From the NCBI GenBank assembly GCA_904502155.1, contig CAJGDV010000002.1:1-37763 (forward strand): a stretch of DNA of 37,763 nucleotides. Reading direction: 5' to 3'. Positions 1,488 to 37,420 of the stretch are shown in pieces. Source of the DNA: an uncultured Bacilli bacterium (GTDB taxonomy: Bacteria > Bacillota_I > Bacilli_A > RF39 > UBA660). Below the pieces are notes generated by a model, which was not told where the DNA came from, did not search any database, and saw only the letters and a program-made list of their open reading frames with translations. Position 1 is the stretch's first letter, and the number at the start of each line of letters is the position of its first letter. Made by a program: the position numbers and the translations under genes.

Positions 1488-1515
1488 AAGATATATTATT
1501 TATTTAATATATCTT
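1488..1515 (-). terminator. Rho-independent terminator downstream of the GT-kinase gene
   Basis: An 11-bp inverted repeat, aagatatatta / taatatatctt, spans the stop codon. On the minus strand it is followed by TTTTTTTAT. Confidence 0.6.
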
Positions 1516-3427
1516 CTATAATATTACTATTTAAAATATATAACCAATCTTCAAAATCATCTTCTGAACCTGTTTGTTCTCTTAAATCAATTTTACCAAT
1601 TTCATATAAATATATTTTTTCTAATATAACTTTTAATAAGTAAAAATTCCAAACATTGATAATATCTATTTTCGTATAATTATCAAATGGTTTTAATATT
1701 TTATTTGCTAATTTTATATCGATTTCACATTTATTTCGGCTCGCATTTAATGCGAATACAACTAAATCATAAAGCTTAGTAAATTCAATTACTTCATCTA
1801 AATCTAATAAAGTAAATTCTCCATTTTCTGACCAAATTAAATTACTTGGTGACATATCTCCATGAACTAATTGTTTTTCATCAAAAATATTATAGTTTTG
1901 AAGTTTCATATATTTTTTTAATAATTCATCAATTACTTCTCTTCTAATTTTTTTAGTTTCCATATTTCTTAATGATTCATAATAAAAATTTACTTTTTCC
2001 ATCATGTTTTCATTTTTAATATTAGATATTTTGTCTATTTTAATAAATTCAATTAATTTTTCAATTTGATCGTTTGAAAGTTTTTTTGTATGTTTTCCTT
2101 CTATATATTCATATATACAAATTGTTGAATTTAAAACTTTCATGAATTTGTTTTCTATTGGCTTAATAATATTTATATTATTTTTATTACATAAATCCAT
2201 AAATGAATTAATAGTATTTTCATTTATATGTTTTTTATATATTTTTATAACATATTTTTTATTATCTGATTCAATTAAATAAACTGAATTAGTTAACTCA
2301 CCTTCTATTTTTTTTAGAGTATTAATTTCTGTTTTAAGGTTTTCTTTAAATAATTCTTTAATTATTTTTTCGTCATATAATTCAATTACTTTTTTATATA
2401 GTTTAATAATATTACTAATATTTGTTTCATTATTAAATTTGTTTTCTATAATTTCCATATTTTGTTTTACTATTAATTTAGATAATTCTTTATTTAAATA
2501 AAGATTTATTATTCTTTCTTTTAAGTTTTCTTCGTCCGTTAAATATTCTTTATTTAAAAGTATTTCATTAATAGCATTATCTTTAAAACTTACAAATGGT
2601 AAACCTGCTTTCATACATTCTAAATAAACATATGATATATCATCATTAACTCTTGGAGTTACTAAAATACTAGCATCATTATAAATGTCATTTAATTCTT
2701 CATTATTAATATTAGAAATAAATTCAATATTTTTTAAATATTTTTTAGGAAGAATTGATTTAATATAACTTGATGAAGACATTTCGTTATATATTGAATC
2801 TTCACCAATAAAAAGAAATTTTACATTTCCAAGTTCATCTATTAAATCTGGAATAATATTAGCCAGTTTAAATACACCATTTTCTTCTGTTAATTTACCA
2901 CAAAATAAAATAGTTTTATTTTTTTCTTTTTTTTCATTCTTATTATAAAATTTATTATTAATAATTTTTGGAATAACTTTAATATTATCTAATTCTAATT
3001 TGTTTTTTAAACAGTTTGTAGATACTGTAACTAAGTCAGCATTATTTAATAATTTCTTTTCCCATCTATTAATTTGTTTATCAGAAGAAGTATATGGTTT
3101 ATATGCCTTTATTATTAATGGTACTTTTCTATCTTTTTCAAAATGAATTGTTAAAGCATTATAATTTGATGCTTCAATAATATCAATTTCACCATTCTTT
3201 TGTAAATCCTTAAGTTTTTCTGCAATTTTATCTTGAAATTCTTCATCTTTTTTTATTGTAATAATTCGAATTCCATTTTCTATCATTTCACAATCATTAT
3301 CACCATTTGTTATAACAGTAATATCAATTTCTTTAGCATATAACTCATTTACTAAAAGACGATAATAGTTTGAAAGTCCATCAACTGTCTCAGTTTTAAA
3401 GTTCTCATTAACTATACATAATTTCAT
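1496..3427 (-). CDS. Fusion protein: N-terminal GT-B (GT1/GT4-like) glycosyltransferase plus C-terminal aminoglycoside/choline-kinase-like (protein-kinase-fold) phosphotransferase
   Basis: 643-aa ORF with a GAGGTG RBS. The N-terminal half looks like a GT-B glycosyltransferase (MKLCIVNENF..., ILFCGKLTEENGV, YLECMKAGLPFVS). The C-terminal ~270 aa carry kinase-fold motifs: YVIKIYKK (ATP lysine), HGDMSPSNLIW (the HGDxxxxN catalytic loop) and LLDLDE (metal-binding). Confidence 0.7.
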   Translation of the reverse strand: MKLCIVNENFKTETVDGLSNYYRLLVNELYAKEIDITVITNGDNDCEMIENGIRIITIKKDEEFQDKIAEKLKDLQKNGEIDIIEASNYNALTIHFEKDRKVPLIIKAYKPYTSSDKQINRWEKKLLNNADLVTVSTNCLKNKLELDNIKVIPKIINNKFYNKNEKKEKNKTILFCGKLTEENGVFKLANIIPDLIDELGNVKFLFIGEDSIYNEMSSSSYIKSILPKKYLKNIEFISNINNEELNDIYNDASILVTPRVNDDISYVYLECMKAGLPFVSFKDNAINEILLNKEYLTDEENLKERIINLYLNKELSKLIVKQNMEIIENKFNNETNISNIIKLYKKVIELYDEKIIKELFKENLKTEINTLKKIEGELTNSVYLIESDNKKYVIKIYKKHINENTINSFMDLCNKNNINIIKPIENKFMKVLNSTICIYEYIEGKHTKKLSNDQIEKLIEFIKIDKISNIKNENMMEKVNFYYESLRNMETKKIRREVIDELLKKYMKLQNYNIFDEKQLVHGDMSPSNLIWSENGEFTLLDLDEVIEFTKLYDLVVFALNASRNKCEIDIKLANKILKPFDNYTKIDIINVWNFYLLKVILEKIYLYEIGKIDLREQTGSEDDFEDWLYILNSNIIEDILNK

Positions 3428-22670: not shown

Positions 22671-22700
22671 AAAAAAAGAAGATATTATCTTCTTTTTTTT
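22671..22700 (-). terminator. Hairpin terminator after the 83-aa coiled-coil gene
   Basis: aaaaaaagaagat-att-atcttctttttttt. The stem runs from 22676 to 22694, with A- and T-tracts on both sides. It spans the stop codon at 22685-22687. Confidence 0.6.
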
Positions 22701-22936
22701 CTTTCATTAATGAATGTAACAGGATCAAAATCAAGACCCATAGATAATAATGCGATTTCATTAACTACTTCAGTTTTAAGACTTTTTAATTGTTTTAGTT
22801 GTCTTTCAAATCTTTTTCTAGTTGATTCATCTTTTACATAATTTAGTCTTTGTTCTAATTTTTCAATTTCCTTATTTAATACCATAAGTTTATCTCTTAA
22901 AACAATTAATCTTCCAAAATCTTTGTTACCACTCAT
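22685..22936 (-). CDS. Small coiled-coil protein (83 aa), function unknown
   Basis: Strong GGAGGAG RBS. The sequence has a heptad-like charged pattern (LMVLNKEIEKLEQRLNYVKDESTRKRFERQLKQLKSLKTEV). Confidence 0.55.
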   Translation of the reverse strand: MSGNKDFGRLIVLRDKLMVLNKEIEKLEQRLNYVKDESTRKRFERQLKQLKSLKTEVVNEIALLSMGLDFDPVTFINERKKRR

Positions 22937-23689: not shown

Positions 23690-23763
23690 ATTATACATTA
23701 TTTACGCAAATTTGACAAATTTTTAAAATAGTAATTGTATTCTAATTTTAAAATAAGTATAAT
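23690..23763. promoter_or_regulatory. Divergent promoter region
   Basis: The minus-strand promoter reads TTGTCA (23718-23713), a 17-nt spacer, then TATAAT (23695-23690), and serves the 224-aa gene. The plus-strand promoter reads TTGTAT (23735-23740), a 17-nt spacer, then TATAAT (23758-23763), and serves the 23789 gene. A plus-strand TTGACA at 23712-23717 overlaps the minus-strand -35 box. Confidence 0.5.
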
Positions 23764-23788: not shown

Positions 23789-24451
23789 ATGGCAAAAACA
23801 GTTAAAAGAATCAAGCCTAAAATTATTTTTAAATTTAAATTAATCATTGCATGTTTTATACTTATTGTTCTTGTATCTTTTGTAAGTAATACATTCTCAA
23901 AATATGTTTCAAGTTCCCAAGGAGATTTAACAGTTTCTTTTGCCAAATGGCAAATATTAGTAAATAATTTAGATATTACTGAAGAGGCAAATTCAAAAAT
24001 TGTTTTTGTTCCAGTTGTTAAAGCTAATGAAGATGTTAATGAGAATGCTGTTGCTCCTTCAACAGAAGGATATTTTGATATTAAAATTGATCCAAGTAAT
24101 GTAGGTCTTTCTTTTAGATATGATATAGATTTTGAAATAGAAAATAAAGATATTCCGGATTTGATGATATCAAAATATGCTATAATTCCAAATGACTTTC
24201 AGGAAGGTGTTGATGGAATAACTTATACTACATTAGATTCTAATGTTGTTTCAAATGAAATGATTTTTGATAAAAAAACTGAAAATTTTCAATTTGAACC
24301 TTTTACTGTTCGCTTATGGTTTGAATGGTATGAAGGCGAAGGAGAACAAATGCTTGATGAAGATGATGCTATAATTGGTTCTGTTGCAGCTTTAGAAACC
24401 ACAAAATTTAGAATGATAGCAAATGTAAAATTTGAACAAATAATGAAATAA
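23789..24451 (+). CDS. Secreted or signal-anchored TasA/camelysin-like protein (220 aa); the only plus-strand gene in the window
   Basis: The ATG at 23789 follows a GGTGA RBS (aaggtatGGTGAaaatATG). The N-terminus is basic, then hydrophobic, then carries the motif NTFSKYVSS. Downstream, APSTEGYFDIKIDPSNVGLSFRYDI resembles the PG/beta-sandwich segment of TasA-family proteins. The track start at 23735 has no RBS. Confidence 0.65.
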   Translation: MAKTVKRIKPKIIFKFKLIIACFILIVLVSFVSNTFSKYVSSSQGDLTVSFAKWQILVNNLDITEEANSKIVFVPVVKANEDVNENAVAPSTEGYFDIKIDPSNVGLSFRYDIDFEIENKDIPDLMISKYAIIPNDFQEGVDGITYTTLDSNVVSNEMIFDKKTENFQFEPFTVRLWFEWYEGEGEQMLDEDDAIIGSVAALETTKFRMIANVKFEQIMK

Positions 24452-24484
24452 AAAAAACGCTTTAAGAAATTAAGGCGTTTTTTT
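24451..24484. terminator. Bidirectional rho-independent terminator between convergent genes
   Basis: AAAAAAACGCTTTAA-GAAA-TTAAGGCGTTTTTTT is flanked by an A-tract and a T-tract. It also contains the stop codon of the minus-strand 409-aa gene. Confidence 0.8.
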
Positions 24485-25691
24485 CAGCTTCAATTATTGG
24501 AATGATTTTGCATTGACTTTCGTTTGAAACTTTATAAATTTTAGATGTATTTTCATCATTTGGACCAATTGCAAAACCACCATCTTCGCCATATGGCATA
24601 TTAGTCCATATACATGTATCAGCTTTTAAGAAACTAAATTTACTATTTAAATATTTATAATAAGCTTCTTTATCGATCACATCAGCTATTTGGATTTCCA
24701 TTCGATTTAAATTTTCATTTTTATAATCAACATATCCTAGAATTTTATCAGAATAGCCTTCTCTAACAACAAAAGTATTACTTATATCCTTAGATATTGC
24801 TGATATAAATTTAGTTAAATCAAGTGGTTTAAATTCAGTATTATTTAATGTTTCTATTACTGATTCATAAGTAGTAAAATTTGTTTCTCCAAAATTCGAA
24901 TTAAAATCTGGAATTAATGTTACAGTTTCATCACTTCTTAAATTTAATTTATCAATTACATATGTTTTAATACATGTACCTTTCATTTCGGTGCATTTTT
25001 GTTTTGTAGTTGTATCATATAGTATTTCTTGACCCAAATCAAATCTAGAATCTGGAACATTAAGCTGAGAATCTACCATTTGTTCTGCAGTTAATTTAAT
25101 TACAACTTCGATTGGAGATTTAACTTTATAATCAGAATTTTCCGCTTTAGCAGCTTCCGATACTAAGAAATTATATGCATTTGTTCCCCATAAACTATCT
25201 AAATCGTCATCACCTGAATCAAAAGGCCATGCTACAGATACTTCTAAACTTGATTCGCCACCTTTTTTAAGAACATATTCTTTATCAAGTGCTGCATTAA
25301 TTTGAAATGGGTAATTATTTGCTAATGCATCCTCTACTTCTTTTGAAGTTAATGTATCACTTACAACATAATTGTCTTCTTCTTTATCTAGAATTCTTGC
25401 TGAAACAATTGAATATTTTATTAATGCATCACTATCCCCAGAGTTTTTAATATTTATTATTTCACTCATTGTTTCCATTCCAGGAGAAATTTCAGGGAGA
25501 GTAATTGTAATATTTTTGGATGTTGTATCTTTATCTATTTCGATGCTCCATGCTCTAATATCAATTTTTGTTGCAACATCTGATAAACCAGAATAAGCAA
25601 ACCAAGCTAGAGTTCCAGATATAAAGGAAACTGCTATAAAAAATAGTGACATTATATTTGCTTTTATAAAAGCCTTATGTCTACGTTTCAT
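24462..25691 (-). CDS. Secreted TasA/camelysin-like protein with a C-terminal extension (409 aa)
   Basis: GGAGGTG RBS. The signal MKRRHKAFIKANIMSLFFIAVSFISGTLAWFAYSG resembles the SipW-cognate GT(F/L)A(F/W)F signal of TasA. EISPGMETMSEIINIKNSGDSDALIKYSI resembles the LKPGD...N.G segment of TasA and camelysin. Confidence 0.65.
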   Translation of the reverse strand: MKRRHKAFIKANIMSLFFIAVSFISGTLAWFAYSGLSDVATKIDIRAWSIEIDKDTTSKNITITLPEISPGMETMSEIINIKNSGDSDALIKYSIVSARILDKEEDNYVVSDTLTSKEVEDALANNYPFQINAALDKEYVLKKGGESSLEVSVAWPFDSGDDDLDSLWGTNAYNFLVSEAAKAENSDYKVKSPIEVVIKLTAEQMVDSQLNVPDSRFDLGQEILYDTTTKQKCTEMKGTCIKTYVIDKLNLRSDETVTLIPDFNSNFGETNFTTYESVIETLNNTEFKPLDLTKFISAISKDISNTFVVREGYSDKILGYVDYKNENLNRMEIQIADVIDKEAYYKYLNSKFSFLKADTCIWTNMPYGEDGGFAIGPNDENTSKIYKVSNESQCKIIPIIEAEKNALIS

Positions 25692-25709
25692 TTATATCAC
25701 CTCCAATAT

Positions 25710-26285
25710 CTATTTATTTGCTCTTGCTCTTCTTTTTTCTTCTTCCGATTCTAAAAGTGTTGCTATAATTTCAGTAGCTATAATTACCATTAAAGGTAAT
25801 ATAACACATAATAACATTCCTAATTTAGATGAAATAGTTTTATATACAAACGATAATATATTTGCTTTATATACTACTTTTCCATATAATTGTTTTTCAT
25901 TTACAATTGGATCTTGAACTAAATTAGCAATTCCTTTAGTGTGAAATAATAATTCACCAGTTTCATTTTTTTCAATATTTATAACTTCATGAGTTACAAT
26001 TTTTCCATTAAAGTTACCTTCAGCCCCTAAATAACTAACTGTATCACCAATTTCTATTGTTTCTGGATCAACGTCTTTTGATATAAGCACATCACCAATA
26101 TTATATTTTGGTTCCATACTTCCTGTAACTACAGTAAATAATCTATAGTTTAAAAGTGCCATTTTATTATCTGTAAATCTTTGTAAGCATACTGCTAATA
26201 CAAAACATGCTAATGCAATAACAAGTAATGTATTTAAAACACCTTTTACTAGATTAAATATTTTTTTAAATTTTCTTTTTTTCAT
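25710..26285 (-). CDS. sipW: SipW-type (ER/archaeal-type, S26B) signal peptidase I, compact form (191 aa)
   Basis: It has an N-terminal TM segment, the catalytic Ser box VVTGSMEPKYNIGDVLIS, the His box IVTHEV and the box-E-like TKGIANLVQDP (canonical form TKGDNN..D). A C-terminal TM segment is followed by a short charged tail (ESEEEKRRARANK). Confidence 0.8.
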   Translation of the reverse strand: MKKRKFKKIFNLVKGVLNTLLVIALACFVLAVCLQRFTDNKMALLNYRLFTVVTGSMEPKYNIGDVLISKDVDPETIEIGDTVSYLGAEGNFNGKIVTHEVINIEKNETGELLFHTKGIANLVQDPIVNEKQLYGKVVYKANILSFVYKTISSKLGMLLCVILPLMVIIATEIIATLLESEEEKRRARANK

Positions 26286-26291
26286 ACTACT

Positions 26292-27422
26292 CTACAAATA
26301 ATCTTGTGTCCTTTCTATATATTCATCCATTGCATCTCTAAATTTATTTTTAACGTCTTTTTGACCAATAGATTCTTTATTTTTCATAGCTTCAATTTCT
26401 TTAGAGAATAGTTGTAAAAGTTCTTCATCTGTAATTTTAATTCCTAGTTTAAATAATAATGATACTATTCTTCTAATTTCTTGTGTTATTAAAACGCCAG
26501 CTGTTTTTTTAAGATTTTCTTTTTGCTCTGATTTCTTTTTACTAATACAATTTAATGTTAAATAATCAATCATGAATGAATGATTTAATAAATCTCTAAT
26601 AATATCATCGCCATCAGATTCTACTCCTTCTTCTGGTTCAGCATCACTCATATCATATTTTGAAAGATATACCCATAACTTCATTGCAACTTGGAAATTA
26701 GGATTTTTAAGTATTACGTTTGTCTTAGTAATTGGAGGTTTTACAAATGCTGCACGTTCTTTTTTTAGACCTGTACAAAATTCACTTCTTCTCCAAATTG
26801 ACATATATTTTTTGATTTTTTCAATTCGAGGTAAGATTTCTTCGATTTGTTTTCTAAATTTTTCTGCCCCTTCTCCTTGAAGATCTTCGATGGCATTAAT
26901 TTTAAATTCAATTCCAAATCTACCTGCATTACTATTTGATTTCCCACTATACTCTAGTGTTTTTTCATTTTTAATTTCAAAGTTTTCTAACTCTTCAATT
27001 CTTTGTCTAACAAATCTTTCTAGTTTATCTAGTAAAGTATATGCTACACGATTTTCGTATGTATTGAAGGTGTCTATCCCTCTAATATTAAGTAATTTAG
27101 AGGGAATAACATCTCCAGTCTTTTCATCTACTCTATCAATATAAAATGTATGTCTTGATAAATCTTTAACTGTTTCTACAGTTGTTTTTTTTGCTTTTTC
27201 AATTTTTTCTACATTAGCTTCTGTAATTAAGGCTAGTTTAGGATTTCTTACAATATTATCTAAATATGGTAAAGCATCTTCAACTATTTGTACCCATTCA
27301 AAATCTAATGTATCTCCTGATAAAACCGAATCAAAATGCATTTCACTTTCGATTTTACTCATAAATGCTTCACATCTAGCATTAACATCTTTATCTAATA
27401 TTTCGCTTAAAATTTTTGTCAT
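26292..27422 (-). CDS. McrC N-terminal-like (DUF2357-like) protein with no recognisable PD-(D/E)xK nuclease domain (376 aa)
   Basis: It lies 16 nt downstream of the McrB-like gene. The stretch W..IVEDALPYLDNIVRNPKLALITEANVEKIEKAKKTTVETVKDLSRHT....IDTFNTYENRVAYTLLDKL matches my recollection of the N-terminal region of McrC-like/DUF2357 proteins (P..L......v.......rh......DT.ENRF). The C-terminal half is helical and charged, with no D...(D/E)xK pattern that I can see. Confidence 0.5.
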   Translation of the reverse strand: MTKILSEILDKDVNARCEAFMSKIESEMHFDSVLSGDTLDFEWVQIVEDALPYLDNIVRNPKLALITEANVEKIEKAKKTTVETVKDLSRHTFYIDRVDEKTGDVIPSKLLNIRGIDTFNTYENRVAYTLLDKLERFVRQRIEELENFEIKNEKTLEYSGKSNSNAGRFGIEFKINAIEDLQGEGAEKFRKQIEEILPRIEKIKKYMSIWRRSEFCTGLKKERAAFVKPPITKTNVILKNPNFQVAMKLWVYLSKYDMSDAEPEEGVESDGDDIIRDLLNHSFMIDYLTLNCISKKKSEQKENLKKTAGVLITQEIRRIVSLLFKLGIKITDEELLQLFSKEIEAMKNKESIGQKDVKNKFRDAMDEYIERTQDYL

Positions 27423-27438
27423 ATGTTGTTACCACTTT

Positions 27439-33784: not shown

Positions 33785-36700
33785 CTATTTAACAATAAAG
33801 TACTTATCTTGTGTACTAATTAGTTTTGCATCATCATATAATTGGAACTGGAATTTATAACCATTTGTTTCGATATTATTAGTATTAATATTAAGTTCAT
33901 AATTATTTATTTTTTTATTTTCTTCATCATAAATTTCTAATGTGTCAACTATGTTATAAATACTATTAATATATAAATTTAATTCATCTTCTGTAAATGT
34001 TCTTAAATCAATTAATTCATAGTCTTGATTTATAGGATTTAATGAAGATTTTTTATAAAGGGCTAATTTTACATTAGGATTTGTAAGTTCGCCTTTATAT
34101 TTAATTTCAAATGGTATTTTAAATAATTCATTTTTTGTTAAAATTTGATCTGCTTTATCCATTTTTATTTCAAACTCATAATCATATTTAACTTTATTAT
34201 TTGAAAGAATTGCTTTAATTTCAATTTCATTTGTATTTATATTTTCTAAAATATATCCATCATATGCAATATAATTAAATATTTTAAAATAATATGTACC
34301 TTGTTTTAAGTTAATATCACTTTCAATTGTTTTAATCGTTAAAGTATCATTTACTTCAGAAATACCATTTTCTAAATTAATATGAACAATATTATCTGAA
34401 TCAGGATAATATTCTTTATCTTTATAAACAAAAATCATATTAGACATTTTATCTTTTGTAACGATATTTCCATCACTATCTAAAAGTTTAATTCCAAGTC
34501 CTATTTTCATTAACTCATATTTAGTATTGTATACTGTATTTTCATTAAATTTTAAATAGTCTAATTTACTTGTAAAACCTATTTTAGTTTGTGAATTACT
34601 ATTTAATTCAACAACATTATCTTTATAATCTGTTTCAAGTACTAATGGAGCATCGTTATTATCAATTATTACATTAAATGGTTTTATTTGATCATAAAGT
34701 GTTGGTCTTATTGTATTTAAACCAGCATTACATACTTCTAAGTATGCTTGTACATCTAATAAGTTTTCTCCCATTAAGGCATTACTAAAATCAAATGTAA
34801 TAGTAAATTCTTCATTGATTTTACCTGATTCTTCATAACTATTTTCAACATATTTAATTTGATTATTTATAGTTCCTACTTCATTAAATAATACTAATGG
34901 ATACGTTGCATAATTATTTTCATCATAACCATATTCATCATTTTCAGTTGGTATTACATATGTATAAACTTTATTTAATACAAAATCTATTAATGTAATT
35001 TTTGTATTTTTTGGAAGTAATACATTTGTTTTAAGATTATGGCTATATGTTTGATCAAATTTACCTTCATTATTGTAACTTGTTTCAATAGTAATTGATG
35101 ATTTATTTGTAATATAATTTCCTAAATTTGAACCTTTTTCAGTTCCTGGATAAATGTCTGATTGAATGTATCCATCAAGTAAGAAAATACTTGAATTAGC
35201 ATAACTTATATTACCACTTATATCGGTTGTTTTAGCATATACGATAACTTTACCAACATCATCAATTAAAATTGGCTCATCATATTCTTTATAATTTAAT
35301 TCACTTAATTCTTCAATTTGTGTATATGTTAATGCTTCTTCACTTATATAATATTCAATTTTATCTATTCCTGATAAATCATCAGTTGCTGATATTGTTA
35401 AATTTTTAGTTCTATCTAATACAAATTCATCAGGTTCTTCTATAAATTCTTGCCAAATATTATTATCCATTTCCATTGTAATAATTGGAGCATTATTATC
35501 TAAAACTAGTAAATCTGAATTAATATATTGTACTTCAGATTCTTTTTCAATCTTAGCATAAATAATATATTCACTCTCTTCTTCTAAAGTGATTACTCCA
35601 TCAAATAAAATCCAATCTTTATTTAAAAGTTCATCTTTTGTTAATGGATTAATATTAGTTCCTGATTCTATAATGTAATAAGCATTTGTATATGGATTTA
35701 ATTCATCAATATTTTCAATACTGAAACTTATTGAATTTCTAAATCCTTTTTTATTAAGTTCATTACTATAGTTATTCCATGAATAAATACCTGCGTGGAT
35801 ATTAGCTATCGGATTTGATATATCATCAAAATAAAGTATTGGTAATTCATTTTTTTCATAAACCCATAAGTTATCACTATTATTAGCTAAATCCGATTTA
35901 TTTACATATTCGTTATATCCTAAATTTTCTTTAAAATAATCATTATTTGATAATTCTTCTAGTGATTTTTGGAAGATTAAACCTTCGTATGTTCCATTAT
36001 TGATTGGTGTTAATCCATTTATATAGTAAGTATTATCAGCAGTGACATTAGTATTTATTACTGATGATATTAAATAATCATTAGCACCCGCATGTACTGA
36101 GTCATTAATTGCAGCACTATTAATATTATTTATAATACCAACTAATCCACCATAATAAGTTCCTTCTGTATCTCCTGTGTTATATGAGTTATTAATATTT
36201 AAAGAACTATTATTATTTTCAATTGTTGCAATTAATCCAGCTGATACATTTTCAGCTACTATATTTCCTTTATTATAAGAATTATTAATTTCTATTTCGC
36301 CTACTGCTTCTGCTATTAAACCGCCAGCATTATATTTACCATAAATATTAGCTTTATTGGCTACATTATTAATAGTTGAATTTTTAAGGTGTGCTCCAAT
36401 ACCAGCTATTGTTGCTTTTTCTAACTCTATATTATAATTTAAATTTGTTAAATCTATTTTAATTGTTTCTGAATCAGTAATTACATTTATTTGAATATTT
36501 GAACCTAAAAGTTCTAATTCGAAAGTATCACTATCATAAGTAATACCATTAATTTCTAAAATATAATCATGATCATCAACATTTGTTACACTTATATTTC
36601 CTGTTAATTTTTGGTTATCTATTATTAAACCTGAAATAGAATGATTGTTAATTAAATTAATATTTAAACTTTGTTCTCCTATTAATTCTATATCTTCTTG

Positions 36701-37420
36701 TTTTGTTGATAGTACTTGTGAAAAATTTTCATTTCTATTAAAAATATTTCCGTTTACAATTACATTATTAATTGCTGTATTTTCAGCATTACTTACAAGT
36801 CCTGCTGTATTTATACCACCTTTTACATAAATATTATCAACATATAAATTATTAATAGCACCTTCTAAATTAGTAAATAATGCCGCATTATCTTTGTTTT
36901 TATCATTCATATAAAATCCATATATAGTATGGAAATTACCATTGAAAGTACCTTTAAAATTATCTAGTGAATCAATTATATTAATTGAACCAATTTCATT
37001 TTTAAATTCACTATCTTCATAATATTTGTTATTTTCTTCATTTACGTAATATGTTACTTTATCTAATATGTATAAAAGTCCTAATTCTTCACTATATGAA
37101 AATTTACCTTTATTTATAATAATATCAGTATTTAATGTAAAGTATTTGTCTTCATAATCTTTTGTTTCTAATTGTTTTTCAAAGAATGCTAATTCAGCAC
37201 CGTTTGAAATAACATAAGGATTTTCAAGGGAACCATTCCCTTTTCTATAACTTGTTGCAACTGTTATACCGTCCCACTCTGTTACTCCCATCAAACTTGT
37301 ACGATTATGAAGTCTAGCAAAAGTTGGAAATACTACTGTTGCTAAAACTATTAATATTGAAATTACTGATATAATTAAAATTTTATTTTTATTATTAATT
37401 TTTTTAAATCTATATCTCAT
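33785..37420 (-). CDS. Large surface protein with GLUG-motif repeats and Ig-like/beta-sandwich domains (1211 aa); candidate adhesin
   Basis: The N-terminal signal/anchor is KILIISVISILIVLATVVFPTFARLHN. GNGSLENPYVISNGAELAFF is followed by repeated GLUG-type segments (AGLVSNAENTAINNV, AGGLIAEAVGEIEINNSYNKGNI, SAGLIATIENN, YYGGLVGIINN). ISATDDLSGIDKIEYY is an Ig-like domain signature. There is no LPXTG sorting signal. Confidence 0.75.
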   Translation of the reverse strand: MRYRFKKINNKNKILIISVISILIVLATVVFPTFARLHNRTSLMGVTEWDGITVATSYRKGNGSLENPYVISNGAELAFFEKQLETKDYEDKYFTLNTDIIINKGKFSYSEELGLLYILDKVTYYVNEENNKYYEDSEFKNEIGSINIIDSLDNFKGTFNGNFHTIYGFYMNDKNKDNAALFTNLEGAINNLYVDNIYVKGGINTAGLVSNAENTAINNVIVNGNIFNRNENFSQVLSTKQEDIELIGEQSLNINLINNHSISGLIIDNQKLTGNISVTNVDDHDYILEINGITYDSDTFELELLGSNIQINVITDSETIKIDLTNLNYNIELEKATIAGIGAHLKNSTINNVANKANIYGKYNAGGLIAEAVGEIEINNSYNKGNIVAENVSAGLIATIENNNSSLNINNSYNTGDTEGTYYGGLVGIINNINSAAINDSVHAGANDYLISSVINTNVTADNTYYINGLTPINNGTYEGLIFQKSLEELSNNDYFKENLGYNEYVNKSDLANNSDNLWVYEKNELPILYFDDISNPIANIHAGIYSWNNYSNELNKKGFRNSISFSIENIDELNPYTNAYYIIESGTNINPLTKDELLNKDWILFDGVITLEEESEYIIYAKIEKESEVQYINSDLLVLDNNAPIITMEMDNNIWQEFIEEPDEFVLDRTKNLTISATDDLSGIDKIEYYISEEALTYTQIEELSELNYKEYDEPILIDDVGKVIVYAKTTDISGNISYANSSIFLLDGYIQSDIYPGTEKGSNLGNYITNKSSITIETSYNNEGKFDQTYSHNLKTNVLLPKNTKITLIDFVLNKVYTYVIPTENDEYGYDENNYATYPLVLFNEVGTINNQIKYVENSYEESGKINEEFTITFDFSNALMGENLLDVQAYLEVCNAGLNTIRPTLYDQIKPFNVIIDNNDAPLVLETDYKDNVVELNSNSQTKIGFTSKLDYLKFNENTVYNTKYELMKIGLGIKLLDSDGNIVTKDKMSNMIFVYKDKEYYPDSDNIVHINLENGISEVNDTLTIKTIESDINLKQGTYYFKIFNYIAYDGYILENINTNEIEIKAILSNNKVKYDYEFEIKMDKADQILTKNELFKIPFEIKYKGELTNPNVKLALYKKSSLNPINQDYELIDLRTFTEDELNLYINSIYNIVDTLEIYDEENKKINNYELNINTNNIETNGYKFQFQLYDDAKLISTQDKYFIVK

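Follow-up and report, generated by a model that had tools for sequence, protein, structure and literature searches.

What is a GTPase of the McrB restriction family doing among genes for secreted surface proteins and the peptidases that process them? The question arises from a gene cluster of about 14 kb in a 37,763-nucleotide stretch of DNA (the window) from an uncultured Bacilli bacterium (contig CAJGDV010000002.1 of assembly GCA_904502155.1). The window, with a G+C content of 24%, is chromosomal and comes from a spore-forming member of the Bacillota; the flanks of the cluster are of housekeeping type and code for AddAB, PcrA, SerRS, Fur, rubrerythrin and SpoVIF. A preliminary description of the sequence had placed ten open reading frames (ORFs) between positions 23735 and 37420, among them one that converges on the others from the plus strand, and all ten stand in coordinates, strand and size. 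It had read the cluster as a candidate envelope system in which a membrane-tethered McrBC-like pair lies between SipW-type signal peptidases and TasA-like fibre proteins. On the evidence given here, we consider it fairly likely that the locus is a CoCoPALM-type, lineage-wide and vertically inherited apparatus for SipW-dependent pili or fibres of the TasA superfamily, equipped with a cytoplasmic GTPase module derived from McrBC.

Conservation of the locus and its cytoplasmic module

At least 542 species, with one genome scanned for each, encode a relative of the 520-residue McrB-like protein, and the neighbourhood figures given here refer to 80 loci examined. More than 8000 database relatives were found, the best 120 of which are 62-97% identical over the full length and come mostly from metagenome-assembled genomes named "Bacilli bacterium". 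A census of gene neighbourhoods had been set beforehand as the test on which an association of the McrB-like/McrC-like pair with SipW and TasA-like genes could fail. It revealed a conserved order in the 80 loci: giant secreted protein, 190-residue type, 300-residue type, pseudo-SipW, SipW, McrB-like, McrC-like, SipW, 409-residue type and convergent 238-residue type. The McrC-like gene is kept in 79 of the 80 loci, the compact SipW in 75, the 409-residue type in 72, the second SipW in 71, the convergent gene, with its orientation conserved, in 64, the pseudo-SipW in 59 and the 300-residue type in 52, and missing genes fall mostly at contig ends. The locus can thus be regarded as a single unit, as had been proposed.

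Spacing within the unit is tight, with median gaps of 8 nt between the genes of the X protein (see below) and the McrB-like protein, 15 nt between the McrB-like and McrC-like genes, and 7 nt between the McrC-like and SipW genes. The close junctions noted earlier in the window are real: base 29001 belongs both to the stop codon of the 751-residue ORF and to the ATG of the 520-residue ORF (TAATG), and the gaps that follow are 16 nt (27423-27438) between the 520- and 376-residue ORFs, 6 nt (26286-26291) between the 376- and 191-residue ORFs and 18 nt (25692-25709) between the 191- and 409-residue ORFs. The McrB-like gene is the best conserved of the locus, with a median identity to the window protein of 63% in the close clade and 56% in the far clade, compared to 24-46% for the secreted proteins; its mean pairwise distance is 0.36 versus values of 0.59-0.68, and the GTPase is of full length in all 80 loci. 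Pairwise distance matrices of the locus proteins correlate with one another (r 0.5-0.9), those of the McrB-like and McrC-like proteins at r = 0.90. None of the window's flank genes recurs in the 80 loci, where the flanks are of housekeeping type. The conserved order, the tight gaps, the correlated distances and the absence of orthologues from 2.9 million viral contigs, which contained just seven distant AAA+ relatives, argue that the pair belongs integrally to the locus and is inherited vertically with it. A phage origin was rejected on the same viral search.

The 520-residue protein (27439-29001, minus strand) is well described as a membrane-anchored McrB-like GTPase. When its family profile was compared with the PDB, McrB was the sole match (E 6.8e-6), covering the AAA+ core, and the protein itself matches the NCBIfam McrB model at 4.2e-5, so that the earlier assignment to McrB holds. 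The family shows no variation in Walker A, Walker B or N361-N-D-D364; the last of these fits the NxD-plus-second-D signature and also aligns without gaps with N-T-A-D of the Escherichia coli protein. A conserved N-terminal amphipathic segment, a transmembrane helix at residues 62-80 and a helical or coiled-coil stalk precede the AAA+ domain. No DNA-binding family was matched in the N-terminal 190 residues, and the idea that the DNA-binding domain of McrB has given way to a membrane anchor is borne out by the single transmembrane helix. NCBIfam FtsL matches residues 56-112 (0.0076) and Pfam DivIC matches 4 of 22 relatives (best 0.018); the N terminus has a predicted transmembrane-plus-coiled-coil architecture, and homology to FtsB is weakly supported. 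Residues 1-20 (MNTFxRFFxEFxSIFxDG) are near-invariant across 22 species and better conserved than the transmembrane helix, which suggests a specific contact at the membrane surface or on its extracytoplasmic side. In PADLOC, the protein matches the defence candidate PDC-M26A (1.4e-35) and is the only locus protein with a match there; a literature search found no mention of PDC-M26.

Its partner, a 376-residue cytoplasmic protein resembling the N-terminal part of McrC (26292-27422, minus strand), matches Pfam DUF2357 with 29.7 bits (4.7e-7) against a cut-off of 23.3, and this family is found in 40/40 of its relatives (best 5.3e-18). Family scans revealed no nuclease family in these 40 relatives, in agreement with the proposed loss of the nuclease, and the invariant columns of the McrC-like alignment include no D...(D/E)xK pattern. 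The 376-residue protein has no transmembrane helix, and a PDB profile search with its family returned nothing meaningful. Hints of coiled coil consist of one weak kinesin coiled-coil match at residues 164-215 and DivIC in 1/40 relatives.

The third component is encoded in the window by the C-terminal part of the long SipW (29001-30083, minus strand), which we call X. The preliminary description had seen here a SipW fused to a long cytoplasmic region. The fusion is real, and the region can be refined to a distinct EAL-like domain, composed of a helical half and a degenerate EAL-like alpha/beta half, that forms a separate gene elsewhere. In the far clade, every SipW is compact, and a standalone X gene of about 330 residues, homologous to residues ~400-751 of the window protein, directly precedes the McrB-like gene in the carrier loci L059, L066, L036, L041 and L044. 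The standalone X of the far clade marks the window protein, by sequence comparison, as a SipW::X fusion with an acidic linker, which contains 20-35% D/E in such fusions. The fusion in turn constitutes Rosetta-stone evidence that X, and via X the GTPase pair, works with SipW. The EAL-like protein, the membrane-anchored McrB-like GTPase and the McrC-like partner form a three-gene cytoplasmic core that is always adjacent and tightly spaced.

A possible degenerate EAL/TIM-barrel had been noted for X from its sequence pattern ahead of modelling. When an AlphaFold2 (AF2) model of X was compared with known structures using Foldseek (E <= 10), ranks 1-35 were all EAL domains, with probabilities of 0.94-1.00, mostly 1.0, and template modelling scores (TM-scores) of 0.18-0.52, normalised by target length. 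The homologue search for X gave 1 match with a single sequence as query and 23 matches with an alignment as query; these belong mostly to one subfamily, which limits the quality of the model. None of the catalytic EAL residues (EAL-R, N, ExxE, DD, K, E) is conserved in a 30-sequence alignment of X.

Systems of this kind are already named. The preliminary description knew of no described system with this composition, but Bell, Makarova, Wolf and Koonin (eLife 2024, PMC11090510) introduced CoCoPALM, in the accessible part of that article, for a large clade of CoCoNuT-like McrB GTPases of the NxD type. According to this account, coiled coils are usual on both the McrB and the McrC homologues, NxD with a second D is usual, and CoCoPALMs branch with CoCoNuTs, which are predicted defence systems (PMC11090510). 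The account accessible there consists of one paragraph and a supplementary figure, with analysis deferred. The locus shares with it a McrB-like GTPase with an N-terminal FtsB-like transmembrane and coiled-coil region, a DUF2357 McrC homologue, the association with a signal peptidase and the occurrence in Bacillota. As far as the published text that was accessible goes, its predicted architecture is that of a CoCoPALM, with an NxD signature that is ambiguous in the sequence NNDD. The kind is thus known and named, and barely explored in that text; features of the locus on which the accessible text is silent are the TasA-like substrates, the pseudo-SipW, the EAL-like partner and its fusion to SipW. 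In a literature search, we found no later papers that use the name CoCoPALM or link McrB to TasA or SipW. The parts list provided here turns the one paragraph on CoCoPALM in the accessible text into testable hypotheses.

The locus shares with E. coli McrBC (6hz4, 6ut6) an AAA+ GTPase core that bears both Walker motifs and the N..D signature, as well as a partner with the McrC N-terminal domain, which activates the ring. Unlike in E. coli McrBC, a transmembrane helix and a stalk take the place of the DNA-binding domain, no PD-(D/E)xK nuclease is recognised in the partner, and the operon is surrounded by genes for the envelope and shows conservation of the housekeeping kind.

Signal peptidases and secreted proteins

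Two of the three SipW paralogues of the locus are predicted to be active. Against a cut-off of 51.85 bits for the NCBIfam archaeal/SipW-type signal peptidase model TIGR02228, the compact 191-residue protein (25710-26285, minus strand) scores 78 bits (7e-22) and also matches the SipW model (6e-18). The long SipW, whose peptidase and acidic linker are encoded at 30084-31196 (minus strand), scores 69.9 bits (2.1e-19) and matches Peptidase_S24 at 9.3e-8. It has transmembrane helices at residues 35-53 and 166-184, and an acidic, low-complexity cytoplasmic linker follows the peptidase. Ser-His-Asp is retained in the compact protein and 71/74 of its orthologues, and in the long protein and 49/51 of its orthologues. 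Judging from these residues, both are catalytically intact SipW-type peptidases.

By contrast, the third paralogue, a 334-residue pseudo-SipW (31301-32305, minus strand) with transmembrane helices at residues 25-43 and 163-181, carries L/G/G and not S/H/D at the aligned catalytic positions, and its TIGR02228 score of 14.4 bits lies below the cut-off. S-H-D is present in none of about 58 orthologues. The absence of the triad throughout these orthologues argues for a conserved pseudo-peptidase rather than a decaying gene, in line with the initial reading of this ORF. The acidic tail that had been noted for it is made of 15-residue repeats (EEDEEEE-RPRKK) encoded by a 45-nt tandem repeat of 5.8 copies (31460-31729, minus strand); since the orthologues have about 180 residues and no such tail, the repeat tail is peculiar to the window organism.

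Charged low-complexity cytoplasmic tails of varying length are found in other species on all three types of SipW paralogue. In a sub-clade of five loci (L040, L042, L048, L051 and L055), the cytoplasmic tail of the middle SipW ends in (N/D)YT(V/I)RLDLxE(I/L). We rejected this YTVRLDLxEI motif: it is present in only 5 of 39 tails and absent from the window, with 1 of 1950 shuffled tails matching.

Five proteins of the locus are predicted to be secreted with SipW-type signal peptides, namely four small TasA-like paralogues and one giant protein. In each, a hydrophobic segment at the N terminus terminates in T-(F/Y/L)-(A/S/T)-x-(F/Y/L). The small ones are a 190-residue protein (33198-33770, minus strand), a Cys-containing 300-residue paralogue of it (32309-33211, minus strand), a 409-residue protein with an N-terminal TasA-like domain and a C-terminal extension (24462-25691, minus strand), and the convergent TasA/TapA-like paralogue (23789-24451, plus strand), which has 238 residues if read from TTG 23735 and about 220 if read from ATG 23789, the probable start. 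The signal segment of the 300-residue protein, at residues 8-26, is followed by TFTYSKY, and that of the 409-residue protein by GTLAWFAY. The C-terminal extension of the latter is specific to a clade, orthologues having about 400 residues in the close clade and about 200 in the far clade.

Profile comparisons using hhalign indicate that the families of the 190-, 238- and 300-residue proteins and the N-terminal half of the 409-residue protein are mutually homologous, with probabilities of 94-97% (87% for 300 versus 409). Examples are 190 versus 300 (96%, E 2.4e-9, 149 columns), 190 versus 238 (97%, E 1.1e-11, 162 columns) and 409 versus 238 (96%, 167 columns). Among relatives of the 190-residue protein, Pfam Peptidase_M73 is by far the commonest match, in 18/86 (best 1.9e-4) and 7/34 (best 1e-5), always below the cut-off, and there are weak, scattered matches to NCBIfam TasA, BsaA and TapA. 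The 238-residue protein has a weak NCBIfam TapA match (0.058) across its signal region. When the 190-residue family was aligned with a Bacillus subtilis TasA sequence not taken from a database record, hhalign gave a probability of 83% (E 8.6e-6, 64 columns), the alignment spanning the end of the signal peptide (GGGTWAAF in TasA) and a strand pair of the form L.PGD...F.F.N. The AF2 model of the 190-residue protein, with a predicted local distance difference test (pLDDT) of 88.6, comprises a signal helix at residues 2-30 followed by an all-beta sandwich. In Foldseek, the model mostly finds generic sandwiches; among the top 50 matches, the best TM-score (0.40) and root-mean-square deviation (4.6 A) belong to 7ueg, a TasA-like bundling pilin of archaea, which is 48th by E-value. 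PDB profile searches with the 190- and 238-residue families gave nothing meaningful. We consider the 190-residue protein a candidate for the major fibre subunit. In two carrier loci, the SipW ORF continues into a TasA-like domain, in single ORFs of 415 (L037:12656-13903) and 375 residues (L050:4558-5685), which are either true fusions of peptidase and subunit or assembly frameshifts.

The giant protein of 1211 residues, the first gene of the upstream operon (33785-37420, minus strand), has a transmembrane or signal segment at residues 14-32, followed by PTFARL, and an NCBIfam OmpL47-type beta-barrel (Ig-like) domain (6.5e-11). Orthologues of 1078-2761 residues are found in the same position in 38 of the 80 loci. 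It had been called a GLUG adhesin, a name that is not confirmed: Pfam GLUG is absent from the protein and from 20 orthologues scanned, and just four GLUG-like motifs can be discerned by eye. It may nevertheless act as a tip adhesin or as cargo.

The arrangement resembles B. subtilis tapA-sipW-tasA and Clostridium perfringens sipW-bsaA in that a SipW-type peptidase adjoins secreted proteins, here of predicted beta-sandwich fold, in the signal-peptide end T-x-(A/S)-x-(F/Y), and in the presence of several paralogous subunits, one of them TapA-like. Unlike those operons, the locus has three SipW paralogues, one of them dead, four to five subunit paralogues, a giant protein and a cytoplasmic NTPase module, and its sequence similarity to TasA is marginal.

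A probable fibre apparatus and the alternatives

How might these parts work together? Sec would export the subunits, the two active SipWs would trim them outside the membrane, and the subunits would polymerise as TasA does, by donor-strand exchange, with the pseudo-SipW perhaps holding or anchoring a subunit that it does not cleave. Stimulated by the McrC-like protein and moored beneath the membrane through an FtsB-like transmembrane and coiled-coil stalk, the McrB-like hexamer may engage the EAL-like domain, and hence SipW or the assembly site, and in this way gate or power the processing and assembly of subunits from within the cytoplasm. The conservation of the cytoplasmic NTPase (56-63% identity) compared to the exposed subunits (24-46%) is a pattern typical of pilus machines. 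The closest analogies would be the control of type IV pili by FimX/PilZ/PilB, where a degenerate EAL is coupled to a hexameric assembly NTPase, and the control of the LapG protease by LapD, where it is coupled to an extracytoplasmic protease acting on the LapA adhesin. This likeness would be one of logic: the NTPase of the locus is McrB-like and not PilB, the protease is SipW and not LapG, and the fibre is different. In X, the EAL residues for catalysis and most of those for binding a ligand are unconserved. That the McrB/McrC ring serves as engine or gate in a pilus machine of a new Gram-positive class, wired through an EAL-like adaptor and with a dead peptidase as holder, is a tentative proposal that may well prove wrong.

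A number of results weigh against a fibre apparatus of this kind. No window protein directly matches a TasA-family model (Pfam Peptidase_M73; NCBIfam TasA, BsaA and TapA), and the 50 best structural matches of the 190-residue model do not include TasA itself. What remains of the TasA-like label in the preliminary description are the signals in relatives and the profile comparisons; sequence and model support the small secreted proteins as distant members of the TasA superfamily, and the relationship to TasA is a distant one. For X, the model is of medium quality (mean pLDDT 60, reaching 74-91 only over the last ~110 residues), the top matches, FimX (E 1.6e-3) and LapD (4.8e-3), both with degenerate EALs of receptor type, have modest E-values, and neither a Pfam EAL nor a PDB profile match was obtained. 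Because the EAL residues are unconserved and no sequence model matches, X is predicted not to be an active phosphodiesterase; with the EAL-type fold of its model, it is better termed EAL-like than a bona fide member of the EAL family. No GG[DE]EF motif was found in the window or in 1173 flanking ORFs of the 80 loci, which speaks weakly against binding of cyclic di-GMP and makes control of the locus by this nucleotide doubtful. The systems to which the GTPase is most closely related, CoCoNuTs (as far as the accessible account of them goes) and PDC-M26A, are of defence type. To our knowledge, the TasA fibres of Bacillus need no NTPase, and so the role that we assign to the GTPase here is one that we purely infer.

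The cytoplasmic module could be a signal transducer instead of a motor, with the EAL-like domain, whether or not it has a nucleotide ligand, and the GTPase forming a relay, directed inwards or outwards, that switches SipW activity or downstream gene expression. This would suit the receptor-type degenerate EALs of FimX and LapD as top structural matches of X, the attachment of X to the cytoplasmic end of SipW and the charged, variable-length tails on all three SipW types, and LapD would be a precedent, as would B. subtilis SipW, the C-terminal tail of which is reportedly regulatory, separately from cleavage. However, a hexameric AAA+ protein with invariant hydrolysis motifs and a dedicated activator exceeds what a switch needs, no GGDEF-type cyclase motif occurs in the flanks, and the locus has no conserved transcription factor, so that we find a transducer rather unlikely. 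Anti-phage defence or abortive infection at the membrane, with the GTPase sensing infection and SipW and the TasA-like proteins acting as effectors or surface decoys, is suggested by the McrB family, the characterised members of which are restriction enzymes, by PDC-M26A as the closest PADLOC match (1.4e-35) and by the branching of CoCoPALMs with the predicted-defence CoCoNuTs in the accessible account. We judge it distinctly unlikely, because there is no nuclease, HEPN or other toxin domain in the 40 McrC-like relatives or the conserved neighbours, the GTPase is the slowest-evolving protein and complete in all 80 loci, unlike patchy, fast-evolving defence genes, and the flanks are housekeeping genes and not defence islands; moreover, no locus protein but the GTPase matches PADLOC. 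An envelope role, as originally favoured, fits these data better.

A structure associated with sporulation or division, such as a spore appendage or coat fibre, in which the FtsB-like anchor would direct the GTPase to the septum or to the membrane of the forespore, would agree with the weak FtsL and DivIC matches, with a sporulating window organism that has SpoVIF 1 kb from the locus, and with a SleB-like hydrolase near the locus in one carrier genome; B. subtilis TasA, too, was first found with spores. This is nonetheless very improbable, since sporulation genes are not consistently linked to the locus (the 80 loci share none of the window's flank genes) and the weak FtsB/FtsL similarity could reflect transmembrane-plus-coiled-coil composition. 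The idea that a TasA/SipW fibre operon and a degenerate McrBC pair stand side by side by chance draws only on the mixed ancestry of the parts. With an order conserved across at least 80 species, tight gene gaps, correlated distance matrices and a SipW::X fusion that physically links both gene sets, it is refuted, and we give it practically no credence.

If the GTPase module of the proposed fibre apparatus drives or gates assembly, a defence enzyme would have been exapted for surface biogenesis, as a new pilus-building route in monoderm bacteria. TasA-type donor-strand fibres have so far been thought to self-assemble; were the ring indeed an engine, their formation would depend on NTP in many bacteria of the gut, a large group. 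The carriers are hundreds of abundant, uncultured, small-genome Bacillota of gut and rumen. The locus is also present in a 1.49-Mb chromosome (OW818670.1), where it occupies about 1% of the genome; this share, together with the strong conservation, indicates that it probably matters for attachment or colonisation.

Transcription signals and other genes

The minus-strand genes form two co-directional operons, between which the preliminary description had placed a strong terminator. This is confirmed: directly 3' of the 334-residue ORF, at 31297-31277 on the minus strand, an 8-bp stem (AAAGACCT/AGGTCTTT) is followed by a T-run, and terminator-like sites are above chance in the window (5 versus 1.7 +/- 1.4 expected). 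The claim that each operon has its own promoter is upheld in part. Consensus-like sites are present at both places, as an extended -10 element (TGTTATAAT) at 37466-37458 for the first operon and as TTGAAA-17-TAAAAT with a TG preceding the -10 hexamer at 31256-31228 (minus strand) for the second, but promoter-like matches in the window are at chance level (133 found versus 122 +/- 10 expected in 24% G+C DNA), and the second site is identified by its consensus match only. The long SipW had been given 751 residues from TTG 31256. As this codon falls inside the promoter-like site, ATG 31196 is the likelier start and the product probably has 732 residues.

Three further families adjoin the locus in carrier genomes. 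One of ~350-490 residues with a bacterial surface Ig-like domain (L001:1961-3430) lies upstream of the giant protein in 43 loci, one of ~239 residues (L012:15419-16123) downstream of the convergent gene in 33 loci, and one of ~536 residues (L001:144-1790) next to the locus in 28 loci; the latter two have no Pfam match. In the window, an 83-residue protein encoded between SpoVIF and the locus (22685-22936, minus strand), among small sporulation-type genes, matches Pfam EAD9 just above the cut-off (1.2e-5); EAD domains usually serve as adaptors in conflict systems based on NTPases. Lastly, in a 643-residue protein (1496-3427, minus strand), a GT4/GT1 glycosyltransferase is joined to an APH-type phosphotransferase domain at the C terminus, an unusual fusion.

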